NCBI GenBank assembly: GCA_024693045.1
Contig: JAILLQ010000038.1
Span: 86,978 to 150,977 of the forward strand
Origin: Treponema sp.
GTDB lineage: Bacteria; Spirochaetota; Spirochaetia; Treponematales; Treponemataceae
DNA: 64,000 bases
Direction of reading: 5' to 3'
The translations under genes and the position numbers were made by a program. The notes below the pieces were generated by a model, which made no database searches, was not told where the DNA came from, and saw only the letters and a program-made list of their open reading frames with translations. Positions within the stretch are counted from its first letter, which is position 1. Every line of letters begins with the position of its first letter. Positions 9,772 through 32,550 of the stretch are shown piece by piece.

Positions 9772-10497
9772 ATGAAAAGACTTTCTCAAATTATAGCAAT
9801 CTTTCTGCTATCGGCTTTTTATATTTTTGCAGAAATGCCAGAGCAGAATGAAATACAATCCTATGAGCTTGCAAACCTCATGACAAAAATTACTGAAGTT
9901 ACCAAGCCTATTATAACCGATGACTGGATTATTTTTACAGCAAAATCTGACAGCCGTTTTACAGGAATTGTTTTTGATTTCGAAAACTACAATACTATTC
10001 ACTCATATCAAATACACAATGTCAGAGATATCGAAAACAATATAACTTCTTCTATTATGTTCCATGTTCAAAAAAGACCAGCTGATTTAACAGAAATCAA
10101 GTACAGGTTAATCATAGACGGTCTTTGGACTTATGACCCATATAACCCTGATATTTACTATGACAGTACCTCTGGAATAACACTTTCCCGGGTTAACATT
10201 GGAAGCACACTGCCAATTGTAACTAACACAAATGCTCAAAGCGGAACAAAGTTCATTTACAATGGCAAACCTGGAGAAAAAGTAAGATTAGGTGGAAGTT
10301 TTACAAACTGGGACAGCTGGATTTATGAAATGGAAGAAACTAAACCTGGATTTTATGAACTGGATTTACCACTGCCAAAAGGAAAGTATTACTACAACTA
10401 CTATATCGGAATGACAGCAATAACCGATAAAACTAATCCAAACAAGGCATACACAGAAGATGGAAGAAAGGCTTCTGTTATAACAATAGAAAATTAG
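9772..10497 (+). CDS. Exported glycogen-binding (CBM48/AMPK-beta-like) domain protein
   Basis: Signal peptide; YRLIIDGLWTYDPYNP and KVRLGGSFTNWD...LDLPLPKGKYYYNYYI CBM48-like motifs (two domains). Confidence 0.75.
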   Translation: MKRLSQIIAIFLLSAFYIFAEMPEQNEIQSYELANLMTKITEVTKPIITDDWIIFTAKSDSRFTGIVFDFENYNTIHSYQIHNVRDIENNITSSIMFHVQKRPADLTEIKYRLIIDGLWTYDPYNPDIYYDSTSGITLSRVNIGSTLPIVTNTNAQSGTKFIYNGKPGEKVRLGGSFTNWDSWIYEMEETKPGFYELDLPLPKGKYYYNYYIGMTAITDKTNPNKAYTEDGRKASVITIEN

Positions 10498-13015: not shown

Positions 13016-13459
13016 TTATATCCAGTCTTTAAGGCTGTCGTCCCAGTCGAAAATTTCCTCATCTTTAAAGAAAAGACCAATTTCTCTCTTTGCGCTTTCA
13101 TCACTGTCAGAAGCGTGAATTACATTGAAATTTGTGTGTGCACAAAAATCACCGCGAATAGTTCCTGGCATTGCATCAGCAGGATTTGTAGCACCTACAA
13201 TTTTGCGAACCAAAGTTACGCAGTTATCGCCTTCCCATACCATTGCGATTACAGGAGCAGAAGTAATATAGCTGCAAAGATCATTGAAAAATGATTTTCC
13301 TTCGTGCTCAGCATAGTGATTTGATGCAAGTTCTGGAGTAATCTGCATCATTTTCAAACCAACAAGTCTCAATCCCTTTCTTTCAAGACGATTGATAACT
13401 TCACCAACAATCCGGCGATTTACTACACCCGGTTTTAACATTGCAAAACATCTTGTCAT
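13016..13459 (-). CDS. ndk: Nucleoside diphosphate kinase
   Basis: Start moved to MTRCFAMLKPG; PGTIRGDF...NVIHASDS with the catalytic His. Confidence 0.97.
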   Translation of the reverse strand: MTRCFAMLKPGVVNRRIVGEVINRLERKGLRLVGLKMMQITPELASNHYAEHEGKSFFNDLCSYITSAPVIAMVWEGDNCVTLVRKIVGATNPADAMPGTIRGDFCAHTNFNVIHASDSDESAKREIGLFFKDEEIFDWDDSLKDWI

Positions 13460-13468
13460 AATTAGCAA

Positions 13469-13497
13469 ATTATATATGAATAAAGTATCTCTTTCAA
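13469..13497 (-). promoter_or_regulatory. sigma70 promoter of ndk
   Basis: TTGAAA-17-TATAAT, then 9 nt to ATG; no SD. Confidence 0.7.
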
Positions 13498-13526
13498 TAT
13501 TGAGAAATTCCAAATCGGGAAAATAC

Positions 13527-14759
13527 TTAATCAAGATTTCGGCGGTCAAGTTCTGTTTGAGCCACTTTTAAGCCTTCTTCAACCGAAACTTCACCATCAA
13601 AAATCATGCGCATTCTTCTACCTAAAATTGAATAAAACTCATTCCAGCGAACCATAACAGGTCTATAAACTCCGCTTTCAAGGGCATCGCAAACAACCTT
13701 GTATTCAGGGTACTGCTTTAATATTTCAGGGTCATCTCTTAAACATGAATAGCGACATGGAACACCACCTTTGGAAATTGATTTCTTCTGGTTATTGGCA
13801 TCCATCAAAAATTCCAAAAGTTTTTCTCCATATTCTTTATGACCACTGTTTGCAGGAACCCCGATTCCCCAAACACCATAAATATTTGAATTGTGACGAA
13901 CTCCATCTTTTGTTAAACGACCTGTAAGAGCTACATAATCCATTGAAGAATTTCTTGTAGGTGTATACCAGCCAGGCCATCCAATACACATAGTTCCAGA
14001 TTTATTTCCGATTGCGGCAATTACATCTTCTTTAGCGGCAGCCCGTCCAGTTTCTATAAGTTCAAGGTATATTTCCATGGCCTGCTTGAATTCGGGAGTA
14101 TCAACAGTTGGATTATTATCCTTATCAACAACCCAACCTCCACAGGAAAGAAGAATCGGTAAAAAATCTACAACAATATTATTTTCAGTATCTCCACGAT
14201 ACATAAATCCAAAATTACGCCTTTTTTTAGAAAAGCGACAAACTTCCAGCAAATCTTCAATTGACTTCATTTCTTCTGTAGACGAACCAGCTTCTTCAAC
14301 AAGAATCTTGTTGTACAACAAAACTGTAACGTTTCCATAAAATGGCGCCAGGTACAACCCATCTTTGTAATAGCAGACAGACTTAGTCGCAGGAATTATG
14401 TCTTCATCCAGACTATAACCGTATTGTGTTAGTTCTGCCAAAATACCTTTTGATGTATATTCAGCCATCCATGAAGAATCGACCATACAAAAATCGTAGG
14501 CGCCAACTTCTGAGGCTGCATCTTTTACTACATTTCTTCGTAAATCTTCTTCTGACAATTCAACTACAGTACATCGAACATTGTAGAGGCGTTCAAATTC
14601 CGGTACAAACTTTTTAACAACATCTGCATAAGTCCCTGCTCTAAGAGCCAGATTCAATGTAACTGTTGGTTTTGTAACATTTTTTGCTTTAAATTTAGAA
14701 CATGAGCAAAATAGAGATAACAAAATTAATAAAGGTAATATCGTAAGTAATTTTTTCAT
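13527..14759 (-). CDS. Sugar-type extracellular solute-binding lipoprotein (SBP family 1)
   Basis: Lipobox SLFCSC; YDFCMVDSSW, APFYGNVTVLLYNK and WPGW features of carbohydrate SBPs. No adjacent permease or ATPase. Confidence 0.85.
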   Translation of the reverse strand: MKKLLTILPLLILLSLFCSCSKFKAKNVTKPTVTLNLALRAGTYADVVKKFVPEFERLYNVRCTVVELSEEDLRRNVVKDAASEVGAYDFCMVDSSWMAEYTSKGILAELTQYGYSLDEDIIPATKSVCYYKDGLYLAPFYGNVTVLLYNKILVEEAGSSTEEMKSIEDLLEVCRFSKKRRNFGFMYRGDTENNIVVDFLPILLSCGGWVVDKDNNPTVDTPEFKQAMEIYLELIETGRAAAKEDVIAAIGNKSGTMCIGWPGWYTPTRNSSMDYVALTGRLTKDGVRHNSNIYGVWGIGVPANSGHKEYGEKLLEFLMDANNQKKSISKGGVPCRYSCLRDDPEILKQYPEYKVVCDALESGVYRPVMVRWNEFYSILGRRMRMIFDGEVSVEEGLKVAQTELDRRNLD

Positions 14760-14776
14760 AGTCTTCTCCTTATTAA

Positions 14777-15697
14777 CTATCTGAAGTTTTCTTTTCCATA
14801 TTTTTCCATTCTAAGCCTTACTTCATTAAGGCATTTTTCAACCTTTTCTTCAGGAATTTTATTAAATAAATCAACCAGATTAGAATCTAACTGACTTCCC
14901 TTGGAAAGATTTAATTCGGTAAGCGCTTCCTGGTAACTTTTGCTGGACTTATAATTTCTATTCATTGTAATAGCAGAATAAGTATCTGCGACAGCTATTA
15001 TTCTTGAAGCCAAAGGAATTTCTGCTCCCTTCAATTTATAATAACCGCTTCCATCTACTCTTTCATGATGGTACTGAATCCATTTGCCAACCTGCTCAAA
15101 AGAAGGTATATCCTGAAGAATCATCGAACCGATAATTGGGTGACGACGAATGAATTCCCATTCAGAAGTTTCAAGTTTACCTTTCTTGTCGATAATCGAA
15201 CGAGGGACACCTAATTTTCCAACATCAAAAAGTAAAGAGGCGTACTTTAAACTGTCTGCGTTCAAAAAGATTTTTTTTCGTAACGGCAGATTTTCATAGA
15301 TAAGCATGGACAATTCCGTTACATATAGAGAATGTCCGTCAAGATTAGCATCTCCGGCTTCGATTACGCCAATCAAAATCCTTACTAATTCCTGAGTCCT
15401 TGTTTTAATCAACTTGGAACGAGAAAAAATACCAAAAGAAAATAAAGTAAACATTAAAGTTGCAGTAAAAATAGAAAGCCCGATTATGTAATCTACATAG
15501 TGAGAGGAATAAATATTGAAATAAAATATTTCACAAAGAACCATCATCACTAAAACTAAGATAGTAAAAGGTATTCTCTGCAAGGTAGTTTTCGACATAA
15601 CATCAGCATAAACAACAGTTGATACTATGTAATGTAAAATATTCAAAAACATTATGACGATTGATATAAGAATCAAAATTTGTGAAATGTGAATCAT
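14777..15697 (-). CDS. Membrane HD-GYP domain protein with a degenerate HD motif
   Basis: Three N-terminal TMs; GHSLYV, LLFDVGK (canonical LLHDIGK), HHERVDGSGYY and RIIAVADTY. Confidence 0.85.
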   Translation of the reverse strand: MIHISQILILISIVIMFLNILHYIVSTVVYADVMSKTTLQRIPFTILVLVMMVLCEIFYFNIYSSHYVDYIIGLSIFTATLMFTLFSFGIFSRSKLIKTRTQELVRILIGVIEAGDANLDGHSLYVTELSMLIYENLPLRKKIFLNADSLKYASLLFDVGKLGVPRSIIDKKGKLETSEWEFIRRHPIIGSMILQDIPSFEQVGKWIQYHHERVDGSGYYKLKGAEIPLASRIIAVADTYSAITMNRNYKSSKSYQEALTELNLSKGSQLDSNLVDLFNKIPEEKVEKCLNEVRLRMEKYGKENFR

Positions 15698-16863
15698 TTT
15701 TCGTCTCCTGAAAGTCCATCTTCAAAAAAATGAATCTGGTTTTTCCCAGCCCGTTTTGACTCATAAAGAGCCGCATCAGCTCTTGTATAAGCAGTATCTA
15801 CATCAAACTCTCCAGATTTTATTTCAGTAACTCCCAAAGAAGCCTGAATTCCCGATAATTCACCAACATTTACAGAATTAAGCGATTTAAGAATCTCTTC
15901 TAGAAAAGACAAAGCCCCTTCTCTATCTTTTAGACCGTTCAGCAAAATTATAAATTCATCACCGCCCAAACGGCCTGCAACATCTCCATGAGTTTTAAAA
16001 TCCCATTTACTCATCAAACTTTTGTCATATTTATCAAGTTTTAAGCTTTTAAGAAGAGTTTTTCCTGTAACCTGAATGGCTTTATCTCCCATTTGATGAC
16101 CATAAGTATCATTAATTTGCTTAAAGCCGTCCAAATCAAATAGACACAGGACCTTGTATTTATCTGGCTGCTTTATCAAGATTTTTTCTGCAATAGAAAA
16201 GAATGAGCCTCTATTCAAAAGACCTGAAAGAGAGTCAAAACTACTTTTGATTTCCAATTCATTTTGAATACGAAGATTTTGTTTATACAGAACAAATTGA
16301 GAAAGTCTATTTTTCTGGAACATGTAATGAAGGCCAAGTGCTAATGTAACAACTACGACAAGGTTATAAGTATCATTATATGCGATAGAAAAAGTTTTAT
16401 ATCGATACGAGCAGTATAAAAAGATTCCGCTAGAAAGCAAAATTACAAAGCCTATTCGCCACATCGTATGAATATACATGAGTGAAATCAAAGTGATAAA
16501 AATCATGTATATTACAGCAGGCATATAAGGATGAGCAACAGAAACAAGTATTCCATAAGAAAGCAGAATAGCAATGCTAGTGTAAAGCATTATGTAGTCA
16601 TATTTTTCAGAAAACTTTTTAAAAATTACTAATACAGAAGTGAAAAGTACTGATAGAAAAAAATAAATAGTGTAAAAAATAATTCTTTCCTGGGTTACGC
16701 CGAATAGGTTCATTCCAGAAAAGACCACATAGCACAATACCATAATAGAAAACCACAAATTGAGCAAAAGAATCTGATGTCGGTTTGCACTGGCGACCAT
16801 ACTTCTAACGCTCTTATATGAGTCTTTATCATATCCATAATAGTCAAAGGATTTAAATTGCAT
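15694..16863 (-). CDS. Membrane-bound diguanylate cyclase (GGDEF)
   Basis: About 6 TMs; DSLSGLLNR, DLDGFKQINDTYGHQMGD, RLGGDEF and ADAALYESKRAGKN. No RxxD I-site. Confidence 0.9.
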   Translation of the reverse strand: MQFKSFDYYGYDKDSYKSVRSMVASANRHQILLLNLWFSIMVLCYVVFSGMNLFGVTQERIIFYTIYFFLSVLFTSVLVIFKKFSEKYDYIMLYTSIAILLSYGILVSVAHPYMPAVIYMIFITLISLMYIHTMWRIGFVILLSSGIFLYCSYRYKTFSIAYNDTYNLVVVVTLALGLHYMFQKNRLSQFVLYKQNLRIQNELEIKSSFDSLSGLLNRGSFFSIAEKILIKQPDKYKVLCLFDLDGFKQINDTYGHQMGDKAIQVTGKTLLKSLKLDKYDKSLMSKWDFKTHGDVAGRLGGDEFIILLNGLKDREGALSFLEEILKSLNSVNVGELSGIQASLGVTEIKSGEFDVDTAYTRADAALYESKRAGKNQIHFFEDGLSGDEK

Positions 16864-16924
16864 ACTCTATCTTCCAATTCCTTATAAGGACTATTATAAA
16901 CTCTATTTTGCTATTTTGAAATTT

Positions 16925-17779
16925 TTATTTTATTTTTTTTAACCGCTTAACAACTGCCTGTATAACGGAATCGGGTGTACTGGCTCCAGCTGTAATACCA
17001 ACTTTTTCAAGAGAGAAAAAACTTTCTGGAATTTCATCAGCTCTTTCTATAAGAGCAGCATTCTTGCAATTATTTTCTGCAATTTGCAGAAGGCGCTTTG
17101 TATTGGCAGAATTCTTTCCACCAACAACAAGAATTCCATCAACCTTTGGACATAAATTCTGAAGGGCGTCCTGACGTTCCTTTGTAGCAGAGCAGATTGT
17201 ATTCAATACTTTTAGATTTTTGATTTTTTGCGAAAGAATTTCTGCGATTCCATTAAATTCTTCTTTGCTGAAGGTTGTCTGGCTCAAGAGTATTGCACTC
17301 TCACTTTCTGGAAAATTATTAATTTCACTGGCTTCCTGACAGTTTTCTACAAGAATAAACTTTTTTCCAGCATATCCTGCAATACCTACAACTTCTCCAT
17401 GATTTCTATCACCAGCAAGAATTACAGTATACCCTAGAGCAGCATACTTTGCTGCATTCTTTTGGCTGGCCAATACCTTTGGACAAGTAGCATTTACCAG
17501 CTTGCATTTTTTTTCTTCAACCTTTGCTAAAGTTTCAGGAGGAACCCCATGAGCCCGTATTATAACACGGCTTCCTTCCTGAAGAGAATCAATTTCATTT
17601 TCCTTAAGAACACTTAAACCTTTGCTTGAAAGCATATCCAACGCAACCTGATTGTGTATAAGGGGACCAAGAGAAAAAACTTTTGACTGACCATCACTTT
17701 CTAGAGTCAACATAGCAGTATCAACAGCTCGACGAACTCCAAAACAATAGCCCAAAACATCAGCAAGGATAACTTCCAT
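16925..17779 (-). CDS. ispH: 4-hydroxy-3-methylbut-2-enyl diphosphate reductase
   Basis: Start moved to MEVILA; GYCFGVRRA, LIHN, IRAHG, NATCPKV, TICSATKERQ, GGKNSANT and GITAGASTP. Confidence 0.96.
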   Translation of the reverse strand: MEVILADVLGYCFGVRRAVDTAMLTLESDGQSKVFSLGPLIHNQVALDMLSSKGLSVLKENEIDSLQEGSRVIIRAHGVPPETLAKVEEKKCKLVNATCPKVLASQKNAAKYAALGYTVILAGDRNHGEVVGIAGYAGKKFILVENCQEASEINNFPESESAILLSQTTFSKEEFNGIAEILSQKIKNLKVLNTICSATKERQDALQNLCPKVDGILVVGGKNSANTKRLLQIAENNCKNAALIERADEIPESFFSLEKVGITAGASTPDSVIQAVVKRLKKIK

Positions 17780-26730: not shown

Positions 26731-27924
26731 ATGAAAGCAAGTCAGGTTACCATTGATCACGTAAGCAAGTGCTTTGGAGATTTCATTGCGCTGAACGACG
26801 TTAATTTTACTATAAAGCCGGGAGAATTCTTTTCACTCCTTGGCCCTTCTGGATGCGGAAAAACAACTCTTCTCCGCATAATAGCTGGTTTTGAATTTCC
26901 GGACGATGGGGCTATTCTTTTCGATGACAAGAATGTTGTTCCCTTACAGCCTAACAAGAGACATTCAAATACGGTTTTCCAGACCTATGCGCTTTTTCCT
27001 CATTTGAGTGTATATGAAAACATCGCTTTTCCACTTCGTCTGAAAAAAGTTGATAAAAAGATTATTGATCAGAAGGTCAAAGAATATGTCCATTTAGTTC
27101 AGCTGGATCAGCACATAAACAAAAAGCCTTCCCAGCTTTCAGGGGGACAGAAACAGAGAGTTGCTATCGCCAGAGCCTTGATAAACGAACCTAAAGTTCT
27201 GCTTTTGGACGAACCTCTTTCTGCCCTGGACGCAAAACTCCGTGCAAATCTTCTTATAGATTTAGATCGTTTGCATGACCAGATTGGAATCACTTTTATC
27301 TATGTAACACACGATCAGAGCGAGGCCCTTGCCGTTAGCGACAGAATTGCCGTCATGAATTCTGGAAATGTTCTGCAGGTTGGAACTCCTTTTGAAATCT
27401 ATGAAAGCCCTGCAACTCAGTTTGTTGCAGAATTTATCGGCGAAACAAACCTTTTTGAAAGCACAGTGGTAAAGTGCGAAGAATACAAGGTTCCTGGAAA
27501 AGCTGATATTGAACACATGGTAACTTTAAACACTCCTGCTCTTGGTCTTCAGGCTCAGCTTAAGGGAGAAAGTGCAGCAACTAGAGAAGAGGATAAGAAC
27601 ATTCTTGTTACAGATTTTGAACATACCGATGAGGGTCAAAAGGTTGCCTTTACTGTTAGACCTGAAAAAATACGAATCACACTAGAAGAACCTGCTTTCG
27701 GTGGCCGCAAAGACATCAACGTATTTAAAGGTATTGTCGAAGAACCTATTTACACAGGCTTTCAGTCAAAGTTCTATGTAAAACTTGAAAACGGAACAAT
27801 CGTAAAAGTTTTCAAACAGCATACAAACTATCTGGATGACGGTCCTGAGATTCAATGGAAGGATACTGTCTACATTTCCTGGTCTGCAGAAGACGGATAT
27901 ATCGTTGAAGATATAAACAAGTAG
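26731..27924 (+). CDS. potA: Spermidine/putrescine ABC transporter ATPase
   Basis: GPSGCGKTT, VFQTYALFPH, LSGGQKQR, LLLDEPLSALD and a TOBE tail. Confidence 0.93.
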   Translation: MKASQVTIDHVSKCFGDFIALNDVNFTIKPGEFFSLLGPSGCGKTTLLRIIAGFEFPDDGAILFDDKNVVPLQPNKRHSNTVFQTYALFPHLSVYENIAFPLRLKKVDKKIIDQKVKEYVHLVQLDQHINKKPSQLSGGQKQRVAIARALINEPKVLLLDEPLSALDAKLRANLLIDLDRLHDQIGITFIYVTHDQSEALAVSDRIAVMNSGNVLQVGTPFEIYESPATQFVAEFIGETNLFESTVVKCEEYKVPGKADIEHMVTLNTPALGLQAQLKGESAATREEDKNILVTDFEHTDEGQKVAFTVRPEKIRITLEEPAFGGRKDINVFKGIVEEPIYTGFQSKFYVKLENGTIVKVFKQHTNYLDDGPEIQWKDTVYISWSAEDGYIVEDINK

Positions 27925-27940
27925 TTTAGGAGCTAGAATT

Positions 27941-28855
27941 TTGGAAGAAGAAAACAAAATTGAATACAAAAAAAGTAATCCCGGTCCCTTTTACGCTTGG
28001 CCGATGGGTCTTTGGTTTACAATTTTCTTTATTGTACCTATTGCCATAATTCTTGCGTATTCCTTTATGAAAAAGGATATGTACGGTGGCGTAAAACTTG
28101 AGTTTTCTCTAATGGCCTATCGCCAGATGTTTTCGAAAGCATACGCATTTATTTTCATGAGAACCTTATGGATGACTCTGATTTCTACACTCATTTCAAT
28201 AGCAATTGCCCTTCCCTGCGGTTATGCAATTGCGCGCAGTAAAAAGCAGACCTTACTCCTGATTCTGGTCATTATTCCTTTTCTTACAAATTCGCTTATC
28301 CGCATTTTTGCCTGGATGACTATTCTTGGAGAAAATGGACTTCTCAACTGGATTTACAGAGCGGGCTTTAATCTTATTCAGTTCATCACTAAGGGAAATG
28401 AAACTTTTGAGCCTCATAAATTCATGTACACAAAAAACGCTGTAATACTTGTAAGCATCTACATGTATCTACCTTATGCAATTTTACCGATTTTCACATC
28501 TGTAGACCGCTTTGACTTTTCTCTTCTGGAAGCTGCAAGAGATTTAGGAGCAACTAAAATTCAGTCTATGATGATGATTCTTATACCAGGTATAAAGAGC
28601 GGAATAATAAGCGCAGTAATTTTCACTTTTATCCCAATTTTTGGTAACTACACAGTCCCTCAACTTGTAGGGTCAACAGAAAGCTACATGCTGGGAAATA
28701 TAATCATGGACCAGATTACTAAAGCCAGAAACCTGCCTCTTGCATCTGCCTTTAGCGTACTTCTGACAGTGGTAAGTATGGCAGCAATTCTCTTCATGCT
28801 TACAAACGAGCGTCATGAAGCTTCATTAAAAAAGAAAGATTCTAAGGTGGCTTGA
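27941..28855 (+). CDS. potB: Spermidine/putrescine ABC permease
   Basis: TTG start after AGGAG; YLPYAILPI...EAARDLGA...GNYTVPQLVG. Confidence 0.92.
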   Translation: MEEENKIEYKKSNPGPFYAWPMGLWFTIFFIVPIAIILAYSFMKKDMYGGVKLEFSLMAYRQMFSKAYAFIFMRTLWMTLISTLISIAIALPCGYAIARSKKQTLLLILVIIPFLTNSLIRIFAWMTILGENGLLNWIYRAGFNLIQFITKGNETFEPHKFMYTKNAVILVSIYMYLPYAILPIFTSVDRFDFSLLEAARDLGATKIQSMMMILIPGIKSGIISAVIFTFIPIFGNYTVPQLVGSTESYMLGNIIMDQITKARNLPLASAFSVLLTVVSMAAILFMLTNERHEASLKKKDSKVA

Positions 28856-28857
28856 TT

Positions 28858-29733
28858 ATGGAATTTTTAATATCAGTAATTATTTCGATTCTAAGAAAGA
28901 ATTCTAAACCTAAGGCAGAAAACAGTCGCCATGCAAAAAGAAGCTGGAAAAAAAGAGCCGAATTATTCAGTTTTTCAAACACCCTACTCTTTCTTTCTCT
29001 GCTCTTTCTTTTTATTCCTCTTTTTGTGATTATATTCTTTTCATTCAACGAATCGAAATCATCTACATTTACTAGATTTTCGTTCGTATGGTACGAAGAA
29101 TTATTTTTGCATTCTTCAAGACTATGGCTATCACTCTTTTACAGTGCTATAGTTGCTTTCTTTTCTGCCCTTCTAGCTACTATTTTAGGAAGTCTTGCAG
29201 CAATAGGAATCAACTGGTACAAATTTTTGGGAAGAAATTACATAAAGACGACAAGTTTTTTACCAATGGTTTTACCGGAAGTAATCATGGGCGTTTCCCT
29301 GCTCATTTTTTTGAGTGGAATCCACATGAATCTTGGACTTGTTACAATTATCATCGCCCATACAACCTTCTGTCTTCCATTTGTATTCCTTATGGTAAGT
29401 GCACGAGTAGACGAATTTGACTATTCCATCATAGAAGCCAGCCGTGACCTTGGTGCAACAGAAAAAGAAACTCTATGGCTTGTAATTATCCCTGCAATTA
29501 TGCCTGGAATAATGAGTGGTTTTATGATGAGTATTACAATGTCCATCGAAGACTTTGTAATTACTTCGCTCGTAAACGGAAATGTAGAAACGCTTCCGAT
29601 ATATGTTTACAACATGATTCGTCACGGAGTAAGTCCTGTAATCAATTCACTTTCTTTTGTGCTCATCCTGATAATCTGTCTTATAGCATTTGCACTCAGA
29701 AAGGGACTCAAATCTTTCGCAGCCGGACATTGA
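28858..29733 (+). CDS. potC: Spermidine/putrescine ABC permease
   Basis: FSFNES, LPMVLPEVIMG, EASRDLGA, SIEDFVIT and TLPIYVY. Confidence 0.92.
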   Translation: MEFLISVIISILRKNSKPKAENSRHAKRSWKKRAELFSFSNTLLFLSLLFLFIPLFVIIFFSFNESKSSTFTRFSFVWYEELFLHSSRLWLSLFYSAIVAFFSALLATILGSLAAIGINWYKFLGRNYIKTTSFLPMVLPEVIMGVSLLIFLSGIHMNLGLVTIIIAHTTFCLPFVFLMVSARVDEFDYSIIEASRDLGATEKETLWLVIIPAIMPGIMSGFMMSITMSIEDFVITSLVNGNVETLPIYVYNMIRHGVSPVINSLSFVLILIICLIAFALRKGLKSFAAGH

Positions 29734-29791
29734 TTTATAAACTCGACATAAAAAATAAATAAATATACACTTAATACTTAGGGAGAAAAAA

Positions 29792-30841
29792 ATGAAAATC
29801 TTTTCTAAACTTTCTAAAATTGTTATTTCACTTGGATTTGCACTTGCTCTAGTTTCGTGCGAAAAAGAAAACGTGCTTAAGCTTTATAGCTGGACTTATT
29901 ACACTCCAAGTGATGTTGTTGCAGAATTCGAAAACGAATTTAACTGCAAGGTTATTGTTACTGAATATGATTCAAATGAAACCATGTTCAACAAGCTTGT
30001 AAACGGTGGAGCAAAAAGTTTTGACATCGTAGTTCCTTCACAGGACTATGTTTCTATTATGATGAAAAAAGGAATGCTTCAGCCTATCGTTCAGGAAAAG
30101 TTTACAAACAGAAGTAAAATTAATCCAAAGTTGATTGAAAAAATTACTTATGACCCTGAAATGACCTATGCCGTTCCATACTACTTTGGTGCAGCAGGTA
30201 TCAGCGTAAACAAGAAAAAGGTTCCAGCAGGAAGTTATGAACGAACATGGAACATTTTTGCAGACAGCCAGTTCAAAGGACACGCATCTATGATGGACGA
30301 CTACCGTGAAGTTATGGGAGATGCCCTTTCATACAAAGGCTACAGCGTTTGCACAAAAAATGAAAATGAACTTGCTGAAATCACAGATTTAATCAAAAAC
30401 AAATGGATTCCAAATATCGTAAAATTTGATGCAGAAGGATTTGGTAAGGACTTTGCCCGCGGAGATTTATGGCTCTGCCAGGGATATGCAGAATGTGTAT
30501 ACGGAGAAGTTCCAGAAGAAGAATGGGATGAAACTATTGATTTCTTTATTCCTGAAGCTGGCGGACCTTCTTACCTGGACAGCATGTGTATCTTAAAGGA
30601 TTCAAAAAAAGCTGAACTTGCAACAGAATTCATCAACTTTATTCACAGACCAGAAAATTATGCAAAATTCCTGGATTTCTTCCGTTTCCCTTGTTATGTA
30701 AACCTGGAAGCAGAACAGTTTATGACTTCAAAAGCTATGTATCCAGCATCAATTATGGACAAATGTGAACTTAAGAATGATTTAGGTGAAGATTTGGAAA
30801 AATACTACAGCTTGTGGGAGTCTTTAAGAATATCAAATTAA
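29792..30841 (+). CDS. potD: Spermidine/putrescine-binding lipoprotein
   Basis: Lipobox ALVSC; LYSWTYY, YDSNE, FDIVVPS, VPYYFG and DDYREV. Confidence 0.92.
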   Translation: MKIFSKLSKIVISLGFALALVSCEKENVLKLYSWTYYTPSDVVAEFENEFNCKVIVTEYDSNETMFNKLVNGGAKSFDIVVPSQDYVSIMMKKGMLQPIVQEKFTNRSKINPKLIEKITYDPEMTYAVPYYFGAAGISVNKKKVPAGSYERTWNIFADSQFKGHASMMDDYREVMGDALSYKGYSVCTKNENELAEITDLIKNKWIPNIVKFDAEGFGKDFARGDLWLCQGYAECVYGEVPEEEWDETIDFFIPEAGGPSYLDSMCILKDSKKAELATEFINFIHRPENYAKFLDFFRFPCYVNLEAEQFMTSKAMYPASIMDKCELKNDLGEDLEKYYSLWESLRISN

Positions 30842-30845
30842 ACTT

Positions 30846-30873
30846 TTGACAAATCGGTTTCTTGGGGTAAAAT
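30846..30873 (+). promoter_or_regulatory. sigma70 promoter of the GGDEF-EAL gene
   Basis: TTGACA-16-TAAAAT, then 6 nt to ATG 30880. Confidence 0.65.
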
Positions 30874-30879
30874 AGGTGT

Positions 30880-32550
30880 ATGACTGAACCGAACTTATCT
30901 TCTATCCTGGATGCTTTTTCATCCCCTATTTTGATTGCTAAACCTATTTTTGAGGGCTCCAAATTAGTAGATTTTGAAGTTCTGCTCATTAATGAAGCTT
31001 ACAAGAATACAGTAAACACTATTTCTGCCCCATCACGCCGATTTTCAGAGTTTAAACATCTTATCAACCGTGATGTACCATGGTTCGACATAGCTGAAAA
31101 AACAATAAACGGAATAATTGTTGAACCCTACACATATTATTCCGAAATAAGCCACTGCTGGTTTAGAATGCAGATGCGTTACACAACAGATAAATTAGTT
31201 GTTGTGAATGTACAAAACATCACTGAAGAAAAAAATCACGAAAGAAAACTAAAAAAAACAGCCTATCAGGATATGCTTACCGAGCTTCCTAATCGACTTC
31301 ACTTTAACGAAGACTACCCGCCTTTTATAATGAAAGCGGCATTTAACTGCACCAAAATCGGCATACTTTTAATCGACATTGATAACATGAAAAATATCAA
31401 CGATTCAATGGGACATGCTGAAGGTGATGATATCTTAATAAAGGCTGCAGAAACATTAAAACAATTTGAAAAAGGTAATATCGTAAACTATAGATTTGGC
31501 GATGACGAATTTATGGTTATTATTCAAAACCAGAATTCCTTGGATTCAATAACAAATATTACTGACACAATTTATGAATCATTTCTGATGCAGAATATGA
31601 GCATTTCCGGAGGTATATCAATATACCCGGATGATTCAAAAGATGAAGACGAACTTTTACGCTTTGCAGATATAGCCATGCACCAGGCAAAAAAAGACGG
31701 AAAAAATCGCTTTGAATTCTTTAAAACCGAAATGCAAAGACGCTTTATTCAAAAACTTAACATACAGAACCACATGACTCAGGCCGTTCTTCAGAGTAAT
31801 TTCACCCAGGTTTACCAACCACAGTTCGATGTACAGTCAGGAAATCTTCGAGGTTTTGAAGCCTTAATCCGCTGGCATGATGACGAACTTGGAGAAATTC
31901 CACCTTCAATCTTTATTCCTATGGCAGAAGAATGTGGACTTATTATTCCAATCGGAGTATGGGTATTGAATACTGCTTTTTCGACATTAAAGCGCTGGCA
32001 AGTTGAATTGGGCTTTACTGGAATAATATCTGTAAATCTTTCTCCTATACAGCTTAAGCAGCCTTCAATCATTTATGAAATAGACAATCTCTTAAAAAAG
32101 TATGAGGTCAAACCAGAATTCATAGAGATTGAAATTACAGAAGGCATTATGATTGACAACATGGATGATGCCATATCAAAGATGAAGGAACTTAAAAAAA
32201 TGGGCTTTAAGATTTCTTTAGACGACTTTGGAACTGGTTATTCATCTTTGAGTTATCTGCAAATGCTTCCTTTGGACACATTAAAAATTGATAAATCTTT
32301 TGTAAACGATATTGCCTCTCAAGACGGTGTTCAGGCGAACATTACAAATTCAATCATCATGATGGTTACAAAAATGGGGCTGGATACAATCGCGGAAGGT
32401 GTTGAGCACGATGACCAGTTTAATATTCTTAAACAGTTTAACTGCCACATTATTCAGGGCTTTTTGTGTGGAAAACCTATGACAAAAGATCGTTGCGAAG
32501 CCTATCTGAAAGGAGATTCTTCAGCACTACTTTCTTTACAAAACGAATAA
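30880..32550 (+). CDS. PAS-like / GGDEF(GDDEF) / EAL protein; probable c-di-GMP phosphodiesterase
   Basis: DMLTELPNR, RFGDDEF (degenerate), FEALIRW, SVNLS, EITE, DDFGTGYSSL, KIDKSF and AEGVE. Confidence 0.92.
   Translation: MTEPNLSSILDAFSSPILIAKPIFEGSKLVDFEVLLINEAYKNTVNTISAPSRRFSEFKHLINRDVPWFDIAEKTINGIIVEPYTYYSEISHCWFRMQMRYTTDKLVVVNVQNITEEKNHERKLKKTAYQDMLTELPNRLHFNEDYPPFIMKAAFNCTKIGILLIDIDNMKNINDSMGHAEGDDILIKAAETLKQFEKGNIVNYRFGDDEFMVIIQNQNSLDSITNITDTIYESFLMQNMSISGGISIYPDDSKDEDELLRFADIAMHQAKKDGKNRFEFFKTEMQRRFIQKLNIQNHMTQAVLQSNFTQVYQPQFDVQSGNLRGFEALIRWHDDELGEIPPSIFIPMAEECGLIIPIGVWVLNTAFSTLKRWQVELGFTGIISVNLSPIQLKQPSIIYEIDNLLKKYEVKPEFIEIEITEGIMIDNMDDAISKMKELKKMGFKISLDDFGTGYSSLSYLQMLPLDTLKIDKSFVNDIASQDGVQANITNSIIMMVTKMGLDTIAEGVEHDDQFNILKQFNCHIIQGFLCGKPMTKDRCEAYLKGDSSALLSLQNE

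Follow-up and report, generated by a model that had tools for sequence, protein, structure and literature searches.

Only two systems in which a stand-alone substrate-binding protein (SBP) works with a cyclic di-GMP (c-di-GMP) enzyme are listed in a 2021 review of SBP-mediated signalling, NspS-MbaA and ScrB-ScrC, and both rely on periplasmic dCache-like domains and on proteins in which GGDEF and EAL are fused (PMC8050422). No stand-alone SBP of a sugar family appears in a 2022 census of sensory inputs to c-di-GMP signalling (PMC8846402). Here we analysed a 64,000-nt stretch of a Treponema sp. genome (assembly GCA_024693045.1, contig JAILLQ010000038.1, positions 86,978 to 150,977 of the forward strand), hereafter called the window, which carries three adjoining genes for a membrane diguanylate cyclase (DGC) with a GGDEF domain, a degenerate HD-GYP protein and an orphan SBP lipoprotein. 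Full-text literature searches returned no published description of such a GGDEF/HD-GYP/SBP trio. We found that the three genes are kept together in unrelated genomic settings, that the SBP descends from a clade of importer components and that the genus sample yielded no orthologue of its cognate permease. The reading we prefer, to which we assign a probability of roughly 0.6, is that an importer SBP was co-opted once as the sensor for a cyclase that has no sensor domain of its own, and that the unit then moved from Firmicutes into Treponema.

The three open reading frames (ORFs) are co-oriented on the minus strand and run from 16863 to 13527 in the order GGDEF, HD-GYP, SBP:

15694..16863, minus strand: membrane diguanylate cyclase, 389 aa (PF00990, E = 1.7e-28, 99.8 bits)
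14777..15697, minus strand: membrane-anchored degenerate HD-GYP protein, 306 aa (HD_5/HD, E = 1.9e-29)
14760..14776, minus strand: 17-nt intergenic spacer, ttaataaggagaagact, with the Shine-Dalgarno sequence AAGGAG before the SBP ATG
13527..14759, minus strand: orphan SBP lipoprotein, CUT1/MalE-like, 410 aa (SBP_bac_1/SBP_bac_8, E = 4e-24)

Read directly from the sequence, the stop codon of the GGDEF gene and the start codon of the HD-GYP gene overlap as ATGA at 15694-15697. Together with the 17-nt spacer and its Shine-Dalgarno sequence, this overlap indicates translational coupling and a single operon. An initial annotation of the locus, made from the sequence alone, had described the three genes as co-oriented and tightly coupled, and the ORFs, their domains, the overlap and the AAGGAG spacer all match that description.

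To place the locus in a wider context, species-representative genomes were scanned for relatives of the SBP, which yielded 280 related loci. The best 80 of these were kept for context analysis, with neighbouring genes classified by phmmer and then checked against Pfam. The kept loci comprised 52 non-identical loci with a c-di-GMP context, 26 with an ATP-binding cassette (ABC) transporter context and 3 with neither. All three genes were present in 36 of the 38 c-di-GMP-type loci that were not cut by a contig end, and the HD-GYP gene in 37 of them; one Lachnospiraceae locus (L064) has the GGDEF-SBP pair only, without an HD-GYP gene. When three SBP homologues were looked up individually, the same three genes were found with wholly different flanks, in one case in the order SBP-GGDEF-HD. 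The trio is linked in over 50 non-identical loci whose flanks are unrelated, which is far beyond chance, and it is highly probable that the three genes form a functional unit. The conserved neighbourhood that the initial annotation had named as a check is thus found, and with differing flanks. The system, which that annotation had proposed for treponemes, is not specific to them; the trio also occurs in rumen Lachnospiraceae, where it probably originated.

Co-occurrence within the genus points the same way. Among 121 genomes of the window's genus, including the window's own (G000; 2.53 Mb assembly, 91% complete), the SBP was detected in 24 (E<1e-149), and the six-transmembrane (6-TM) domain of the cyclase was detected in exactly those 24 (E<1e-39), nearly always on the same contig and 2-3 kb from the SBP gene. 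This exact co-occurrence suggests that the unit is gained and lost as a whole. In one Treponema sub-lineage (L006, L013, L017, L031 and L048), an extra soluble GGDEF protein of 350 aa with an N-terminal GGDEF domain is encoded ~1.1 kb upstream of the trio, immediately before the 6-TM cyclase.

The loci with an ABC context come from Butyricicoccus, Agathobaculum, Dysosmobacter, Oscillibacter, Anaerovoracaceae and others (Oscillospiraceae and related families), and the transporter form has a cultured carrier in Butyricicoccus pullicaecorum DSM 23266. Their importer operons follow the order LacI, permease, SBP, permease, often a metallo-beta-lactamase (MBL)-fold gene, then a MalK-type ATPase, and none of these Firmicutes operons contains a glycoside hydrolase gene. 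The permease-SBP-permease order is unusual, and is seen at L062:5120-10507, L072:5119-9462 and other Firmicutes loci, with the MBL-fold gene often lying between the second permease and MalK. The importer SBPs are 53-59% identical to the window SBP, as close to it as many Treponema orthologues. In the unrooted SBP tree there is a single change of context, the ABC-linked SBPs being split off by a branch with a Shimodaira-Hasegawa-like approximate likelihood ratio test (SH-aLRT) support of 99. Rooting with outgroups of 28-46% identity, which were obtained from an exhaustive search, places the ABC-linked SBPs as basal and paraphyletic, and the c-di-GMP-linked SBPs as one derived clade (99), within which Lachnospiraceae lineages are basal and the Treponema clade is nested (97). 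The simplest history that these trees suggest would be that an importer SBP was co-opted once, in a Lachnospiraceae-like Firmicute, and that a single transfer then brought the unit into rumen Treponema. The initial annotation had held that finding the SBP beside MalFG-type permeases elsewhere would speak against a sensor role. Such permeases do accompany the sister SBPs in importers; the c-di-GMP-linked SBPs nevertheless form their own derived clade.

We then searched for a transporter that the window SBP might serve. The best matches to the cognate permeases in the window's own genome are 26-31% identical and belong to two maltodextrin-type CUT1 systems, each with its own SBP and alpha-glucan enzymes, and tblastn found no paralogue of the SBP in this genome. 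Across the 121 genus genomes there was no orthologue of the cognate permeases, the best match being 25-32% identical. No permease or ATPase partner of the SBP was thus found in its genome or in the genus sample, and cognate MalFG and MalK were seen only in the Firmicutes sister clade.

The cyclase combines a canonical output domain with an unusual membrane domain. Its GGDEF domain (residues 208-376; TIGR00254, 95.9 bits; PF00990 cut-off, 23.8) carries intact RLGGDEF and FDLDGFKQIND (DxDxFKxxND) motifs, the residues of which are invariant in 32-44 orthologues, and by profile and motifs the protein is predicted to be an active-type diguanylate cyclase. An RxxD I-site was found neither in the window's cyclase, which has THGD instead, nor in any of the 44 orthologues compared. 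The N-terminus is cytoplasmic and basic, and bears a YYGYD motif. An AlphaFold2 (AF2) model, built on an alignment of 32 orthologues, contains six TM helices (~20-50, 58-80, 89-110, 117-129, 134-155 and 158-185), with a predicted local distance difference test score (pLDDT) of 89-96 over residues 10-200. TM6 continues unbroken into a stalk helix, to ~residue 210, that carries the GGDEF domain. The outward-facing parts are residues 51-57, 111-116 and ~153-167 (AF2 loops of 7, 6 and ~2 residues, with the basic N-terminus set inside), and no periplasmic dCache-like domain is present. TM bundles with almost no periplasmic domain had been proposed for both enzymes, and this picture is borne out by the six helices and short loops of the cyclase model and by three hydropathy segments in the HD-GYP protein.

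Residues 1-195 of the cyclase gave no Pfam match, even at E up to 10. Foldseek returned GGDEF-domain matches (DGC structures) only, plus a weak full-length match to the membrane cyclase ImcA (8wcn, TM-score 0.39), and a word-based search returned the orthologous family only. Conservation was scored as mean top-residue frequency over 44 orthologues. The best-conserved parts of the membrane domain are its three short outward segments, NLFG, PYMPA and YKTFSIAYxDTYN, which score 0.73-0.84; the TM helices score 0.45-0.64 and the cytoplasmic loops 0.51-0.59. That the residues facing outwards are the most conserved fits signalling from an SBP to a membrane enzyme of the NspS-MbaA kind. Weak 6-TM paralogues (20-27% identity; open frames of ~365-450 aa) were seen in the SBP-less genomes G006, G016, G044, G046, G048, G062, G083, G084, G109, G113, G118 and G134, a hint that there may be a wider family of 6-TM cyclases for which Pfam has no model.

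The SBP has a signal peptide (residues 1-19) with a lipobox-like LFCSC sequence, and at least 90% of its relatives retain Cys20. It matches PF01547 with 86.5 bits, and the AF2 model (pLDDT 90.8) shows a two-lobe, MalE-like fold. The best Foldseek matches, 1eu8, 6dtq and 5iai, have TM-scores of ~0.76 at no more than 22% identity. Because the best solved relatives, which bind trehalose/maltose, polyols, tagatose or beta-1,2-glucans, are so distant, the ligand cannot be read from known structures. The carbohydrate ligand put forward in the initial annotation therefore reduces to a family-level guess, the importer operons being free of glycoside hydrolase genes and the solved relatives no closer than stated; we regard a sugar as a tentative assignment that falls short of even odds. 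The ABC-linked and c-di-GMP-linked SBPs share 146 identically conserved positions, and only four positions discriminate between them (249, 251, 255 and 270), two of which are acidic residues lost in the signalling clade; some further positions around 249-255 are constrained in the signalling clade alone. This ratio of shared to discriminating positions points to an unchanged pocket with a small change elsewhere, and the ligand is very probably the same as that of the sister importer SBPs.

The HD-GYP protein (domain at residues 109-274; PF13487 HD_5, 103 bits; PF01966, 49 bits) has three TM segments by hydropathy (~7-25, 42-60 and 68-89), which expose ~4+4 residues outside. Aligned with 5z7c and 4mcw, which together with 4r8z are its best PDB sequence matches, it reads LLFDVGK for LLHDIGK, GYY for GYP and ADTYSA for AD..DA. 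Two metal ligands, both in the binuclear core of 4MCW, are replaced (His157 by Phe and Asp241 by Ser), so that the full ligand set and the HD dyad are incomplete and the GYP motif is altered. The initial annotation had called this protein degenerate, and the degeneracy extends to the whole family. Among 50 non-identical orthologues the dyad His is Leu in 40, Ile in 4, Phe in 3 and His in 2; the distal Asp is Ser in 49; and the GYP motif reads GYY in 38 and GYH in 9, with the substrate-contacting Tyr retained. H122, D158, H186 and HHE210-212 are kept; six of the eight canonical ligand positions are invariant or nearly so. Also present are KKG 171-173 (equivalent to KPG) and RNYK 247-250, with the R conserved in 48 and the Y in all 50 of the orthologues; KPG and RxY[K/R] are the c-di-GMP contact motifs of HD-GYP domains, the active sites of which are known to be plastic (Galperin and Chou, bioRxiv 10.1101/2021.11.05.467447). 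The membrane anchor has a conservation score of 0.33, the lowest in the whole unit, while the cytoplasmic domain scores 0.71. A fixed defect under such strong constraint suggests a retained non-catalytic function. The protein is most likely non-hydrolysing or barely hydrolysing, and would serve in c-di-GMP binding or partner control rather than as a phosphodiesterase. Feedback on the cyclase by its own product, mediated by the HD-GYP protein, is an attractive idea since no orthologue of the cyclase has an I-site.

Several of the c-di-GMP-type loci carry further binding-protein genes. In two Lachnospiraceae metagenome-assembled genomes (MAGs), a gene for a DctP SBP of the tripartite ATP-independent periplasmic (TRAP) transporter type lies between the HD-GYP and SBP_bac_1 genes (L043:4964-5980 and L046:4958-5989), and no TRAP permease or membrane gene was found near either. 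Directly upstream of the trio of Treponema sp. RGIG4806 (L038:3-2916), a DctP-type SBP gene is overlapped at its start by a gene for a dCache_1-PAS-GGDEF protein (630 aa, 5' end cut), which makes a second pairing of an SBP with a cyclase, here of the Cache type. On this evidence, orphan SBPs beside cyclases look like a design that recurs in these organisms. At L085:7027-8178, in another Lachnospiraceae MAG, a signalling-clade SBP is followed by a Peripla_BP_4-type binding protein, with no adjoining GGDEF, HD-GYP or permease gene.

On the basis of these observations, we propose that the trio may act as one signalling unit that converts an extracytoplasmic ligand into a c-di-GMP response. The lipoprotein SBP would bind a small solute, the same as that of the sister Firmicutes importer and probably carbohydrate-like, and would dock on the outward side of the cyclase's 6-TM domain, the cyclase most likely being a dimer. 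The signal would then travel through the continuous TM6/stalk helix to the GGDEF domain and alter c-di-GMP synthesis; this contact and the direction of regulation we infer. The membrane-tethered HD-GYP protein may be a partner that binds c-di-GMP, whether for feedback or as an effector acting locally. We consider it somewhat more likely than not that the SBP signals to the cyclase. The sensor role first suggested for the SBP is consistent with its orphan status, with the conserved unit and with the conservation of the outward loops of the cyclase, although the protein appears to be a transporter component that was recruited recently rather than a dedicated sensor of long standing. It is unlikely that the signal passes through both TM bundles, as the initial annotation had it, given the score of 0.33 for the HD-GYP anchor against 0.73-0.84 for the outside loops of the cyclase. 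A fuller version of the proposal is more speculative, and we would give it slightly less than an even chance: here the SBP docks directly on a 2x6-TM bundle as it once did on permeases, the non-hydrolysing HD-GYP protein reads the product in place of an I-site, and the cassette spread between phyla, from Lachnospiraceae to Treponema, among rumen bacteria.

Several points weigh against a co-opted sensor. Each cyclase monomer offers ~15 residues to the outside, far below the SBP-binding dCache-like domains of known systems, and L046 has HD-GYP and SBP genes without a 6-TM cyclase, so the partner need not always be the cyclase. Gene contexts were read for the best 80 of the 280 related loci only, the SBP trees come from an IQ-TREE quick search, and the root leans on outgroups with long branches and of unknown genomic context. 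Co-regulation by itself would also be enough to produce operon linkage, and the fixed differences from the transporter-linked sisters are so few that the SBP may still dock on a permease. These last two points meet in an alternative that we consider unlikely, namely that the SBP still transports, through unlinked generic CUT1 permeases of the maltodextrin type, and simply shares a transcript with the c-di-GMP enzymes, uptake capacity and c-di-GMP turnover being co-regulated without any signalling between the proteins; in a milder form it would be a dual transport and signalling SBP, as in MalE-Tar or ChvE-VirA. With 146 shared and 4 differing fixed sites the permease-docking surface may indeed be intact, the window's genome does have two CUT1 systems, and many signalling SBPs also serve transporters (PMC8050422). 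However, both CUT1 systems own an SBP and alpha-glucan enzymes, and their permeases share no more than 26-31% identity with the cognate ones, of which no orthologue was found in the 121 genus genomes. The SBP and the 6-TM cyclase, by contrast, co-occur in 24 of 24 genomes, and co-regulation leaves the high conservation of the outside loops of the cyclase unexplained.

Another possibility is that the HD-GYP protein is the partner of the SBP, either as a transducer that switches the cyclase on or off or within an HD-GYP/cyclase hetero-complex regulated by the SBP, much as in the RpfG family, where inactive members work through contacts between proteins. Such a mode of action is known for HD-GYP proteins that have lost activity, the HD-GYP gene is present in 37 of 38 untruncated loci, its cytoplasmic domain is strongly constrained despite the lost ligands, and L046 keeps HD-GYP, DctP and SBP genes where the 6-TM cyclase is missing. 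Even so, its TM region is the least conserved part of the unit (0.33) and exposes only ~4+4 residues, and L064 keeps the GGDEF-SBP pair without an HD-GYP gene, which makes this arrangement quite improbable. We give still less credence to the HD-GYP protein being an enzyme with an altered metal centre (mononuclear, or with pGpG or cGAMP as substrate) in a DGC/phosphodiesterase pair that is set by, for example, a membrane or lipid signal at the TM bundles and not by the SBP. The plasticity of HD-GYP active sites leaves room for such an enzyme, as do the invariant six of eight ligand positions, the HHE triad and the substrate-contact motifs; against it, Leu, Ile or Phe stands in for the HD His in 47 of 50 orthologues and Ser for the distal Asp in 49, both lost residues belong to the binuclear core in 4MCW, and the strict linkage to the SBP is left unexplained. 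Co-option of the SBP as the sensor of the cyclase remains the reading that we favour.

The trio is flanked by housekeeping genes, with ispH, secF and secD upstream and ndk, gpsA and ffh downstream. No ABC permease gene lies in these flanks, as had been noted initially: the nearest ABC system is a potABCD-like operon at 26731-30841, which begins ~10 kb from the nearer end of the trio and has its own PotD-type SBP. We considered this operon as the missing transporter and rejected it, given that SBP and permeases only 22% identical to the cognate type. The plus-strand region 26731-32550 encodes a potA-like ATPase, two permeases and a PotD-like SBP (29792-30841), followed after 38 nt by a GGDEF-EAL protein (30880-32550), an arrangement that is superficially NspS-MbaA-like. 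The GGDEF-EAL protein was likewise rejected as an MbaA-like receptor; it has a soluble, PAS-like N-terminus without a TM segment, and the SBP beside it sits inside a complete transporter.

Upstream of the trio, the 61-nt spacer between ispH and the GGDEF gene contains one further feature:

16893..16920, minus strand: promoter-like TTCAAA-16-TATAAT (consensus scan; candidate)

This site is a possible promoter of the trio itself, on weak evidence; in the consensus scan, the number of promoter-like sites in the region was not above that in shuffled sequences. At the other end, the ndk ORF (13016-13549, minus strand) has a listed TTG start that overlaps the SBP gene by 23 nt, its NDK profile match starts at residue 33, and a TTGAAA-17-TATAAT sequence lies at 13497-13469. 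The true start of ndk is probably later, and the gene probably has its own promoter. Membership of ndk in the unit as a fourth gene was rejected on account of this promoter-like site after the SBP stop codon, of the late start of the NDK profile match and of the flanks of the trio, which differ in every other locus. The G+C content is 0.32-0.35 over the GGDEF and HD-GYP genes (positions 14000-17000) versus 0.37-0.39 in the flanks, which would fit either a codon content rich in TM segments or a foreign origin. Elsewhere in the window, the only recognised domain of a 241-aa protein (9772-10497, plus strand) is a glycogen-binding CBM48/AMPK1_CBM module at its C-terminus.

If the proposal is correct, an SBP can be wired to a cyclase that has essentially no outside domain, which would be a new architecture for SBP signalling and the first c-di-GMP system driven by an SBP_bac_1 protein. 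It would also provide a dated, traceable example of a transporter component becoming a sensor, with sister clades ~55% diverged, one in importers and the other in signalling operons, and the trio would be a natural test bed for the role of a conserved degenerate HD-GYP protein. A nutrient cue may in this way steer the attachment and motility choices of fibre-associated rumen spirochetes and Lachnospiraceae. As the trio has cultured carriers (Treponema saccharophilum DSM 2985, T. zioleckii kT3, Treponema sp. JC4 and C6A8), the idea is directly testable.

Among known systems, the SBP itself has counterparts in the CUT1 MalEFGK-type importers of Butyricicoccus, Agathobaculum and Dysosmobacter, the SBPs of which share its fold at 53-59% identity; the difference lies in the neighbours, which in the trio are c-di-GMP enzymes, no permease or ATPase partner having been found in the genome or the genus sample. 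A likeness in circuit design is offered by YfiBNR (TpbB) of Pseudomonas and E. coli, in which a separate soluble protein exerts periplasmic control over a membrane diguanylate cyclase and a lipoprotein takes part. Unlike the trio, YfiR is not an SBP and binds no nutrient, and YfiN has a HAMP domain as well as a PAS-like domain in the periplasm. Outside the GGDEF domain we detected no sequence relation between the cyclase of the trio and YfiN; the DgcN model scored 82 bits, its cut-off being 325. For the HD-GYP protein there is precedent in P. aeruginosa PA2572, a catalytically inactive HD-GYP protein. The degenerate RpfG-family proteins (Galperin and Chou) similarly keep their fold under selection after catalytic loss, presumably for binding or protein contact; the HD-GYP protein of the trio differs in being anchored by three TM helices, in lacking a REC domain and in its fixed operon linkage to a cyclase and an SBP.

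The nearest described parallels are NspS-MbaA of Vibrio cholerae and ScrB-ScrC of V. parahaemolyticus, in which, as in the trio, a stand-alone, non-transport SBP is encoded beside a membrane c-di-GMP enzyme (PMC8050422). In both, the SBP reports an outside ligand to the enzyme, which for the trio is a proposal. Their receptor is a single GGDEF-EAL protein with a large dCache-like domain, whereas the trio has a 6-TM cyclase without a periplasmic domain, a separate degenerate HD-GYP protein and no EAL domain. The SBPs of these two systems belong to the PotD type (SBP_bac_8) or to SBP_bac_3, with polyamines or the S-signal as ligands, whereas that of the trio is a MalE-like SBP_bac_1 lipoprotein. 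The trio would thus work like NspS-MbaA, yet it departs from that system in three of its structural features.

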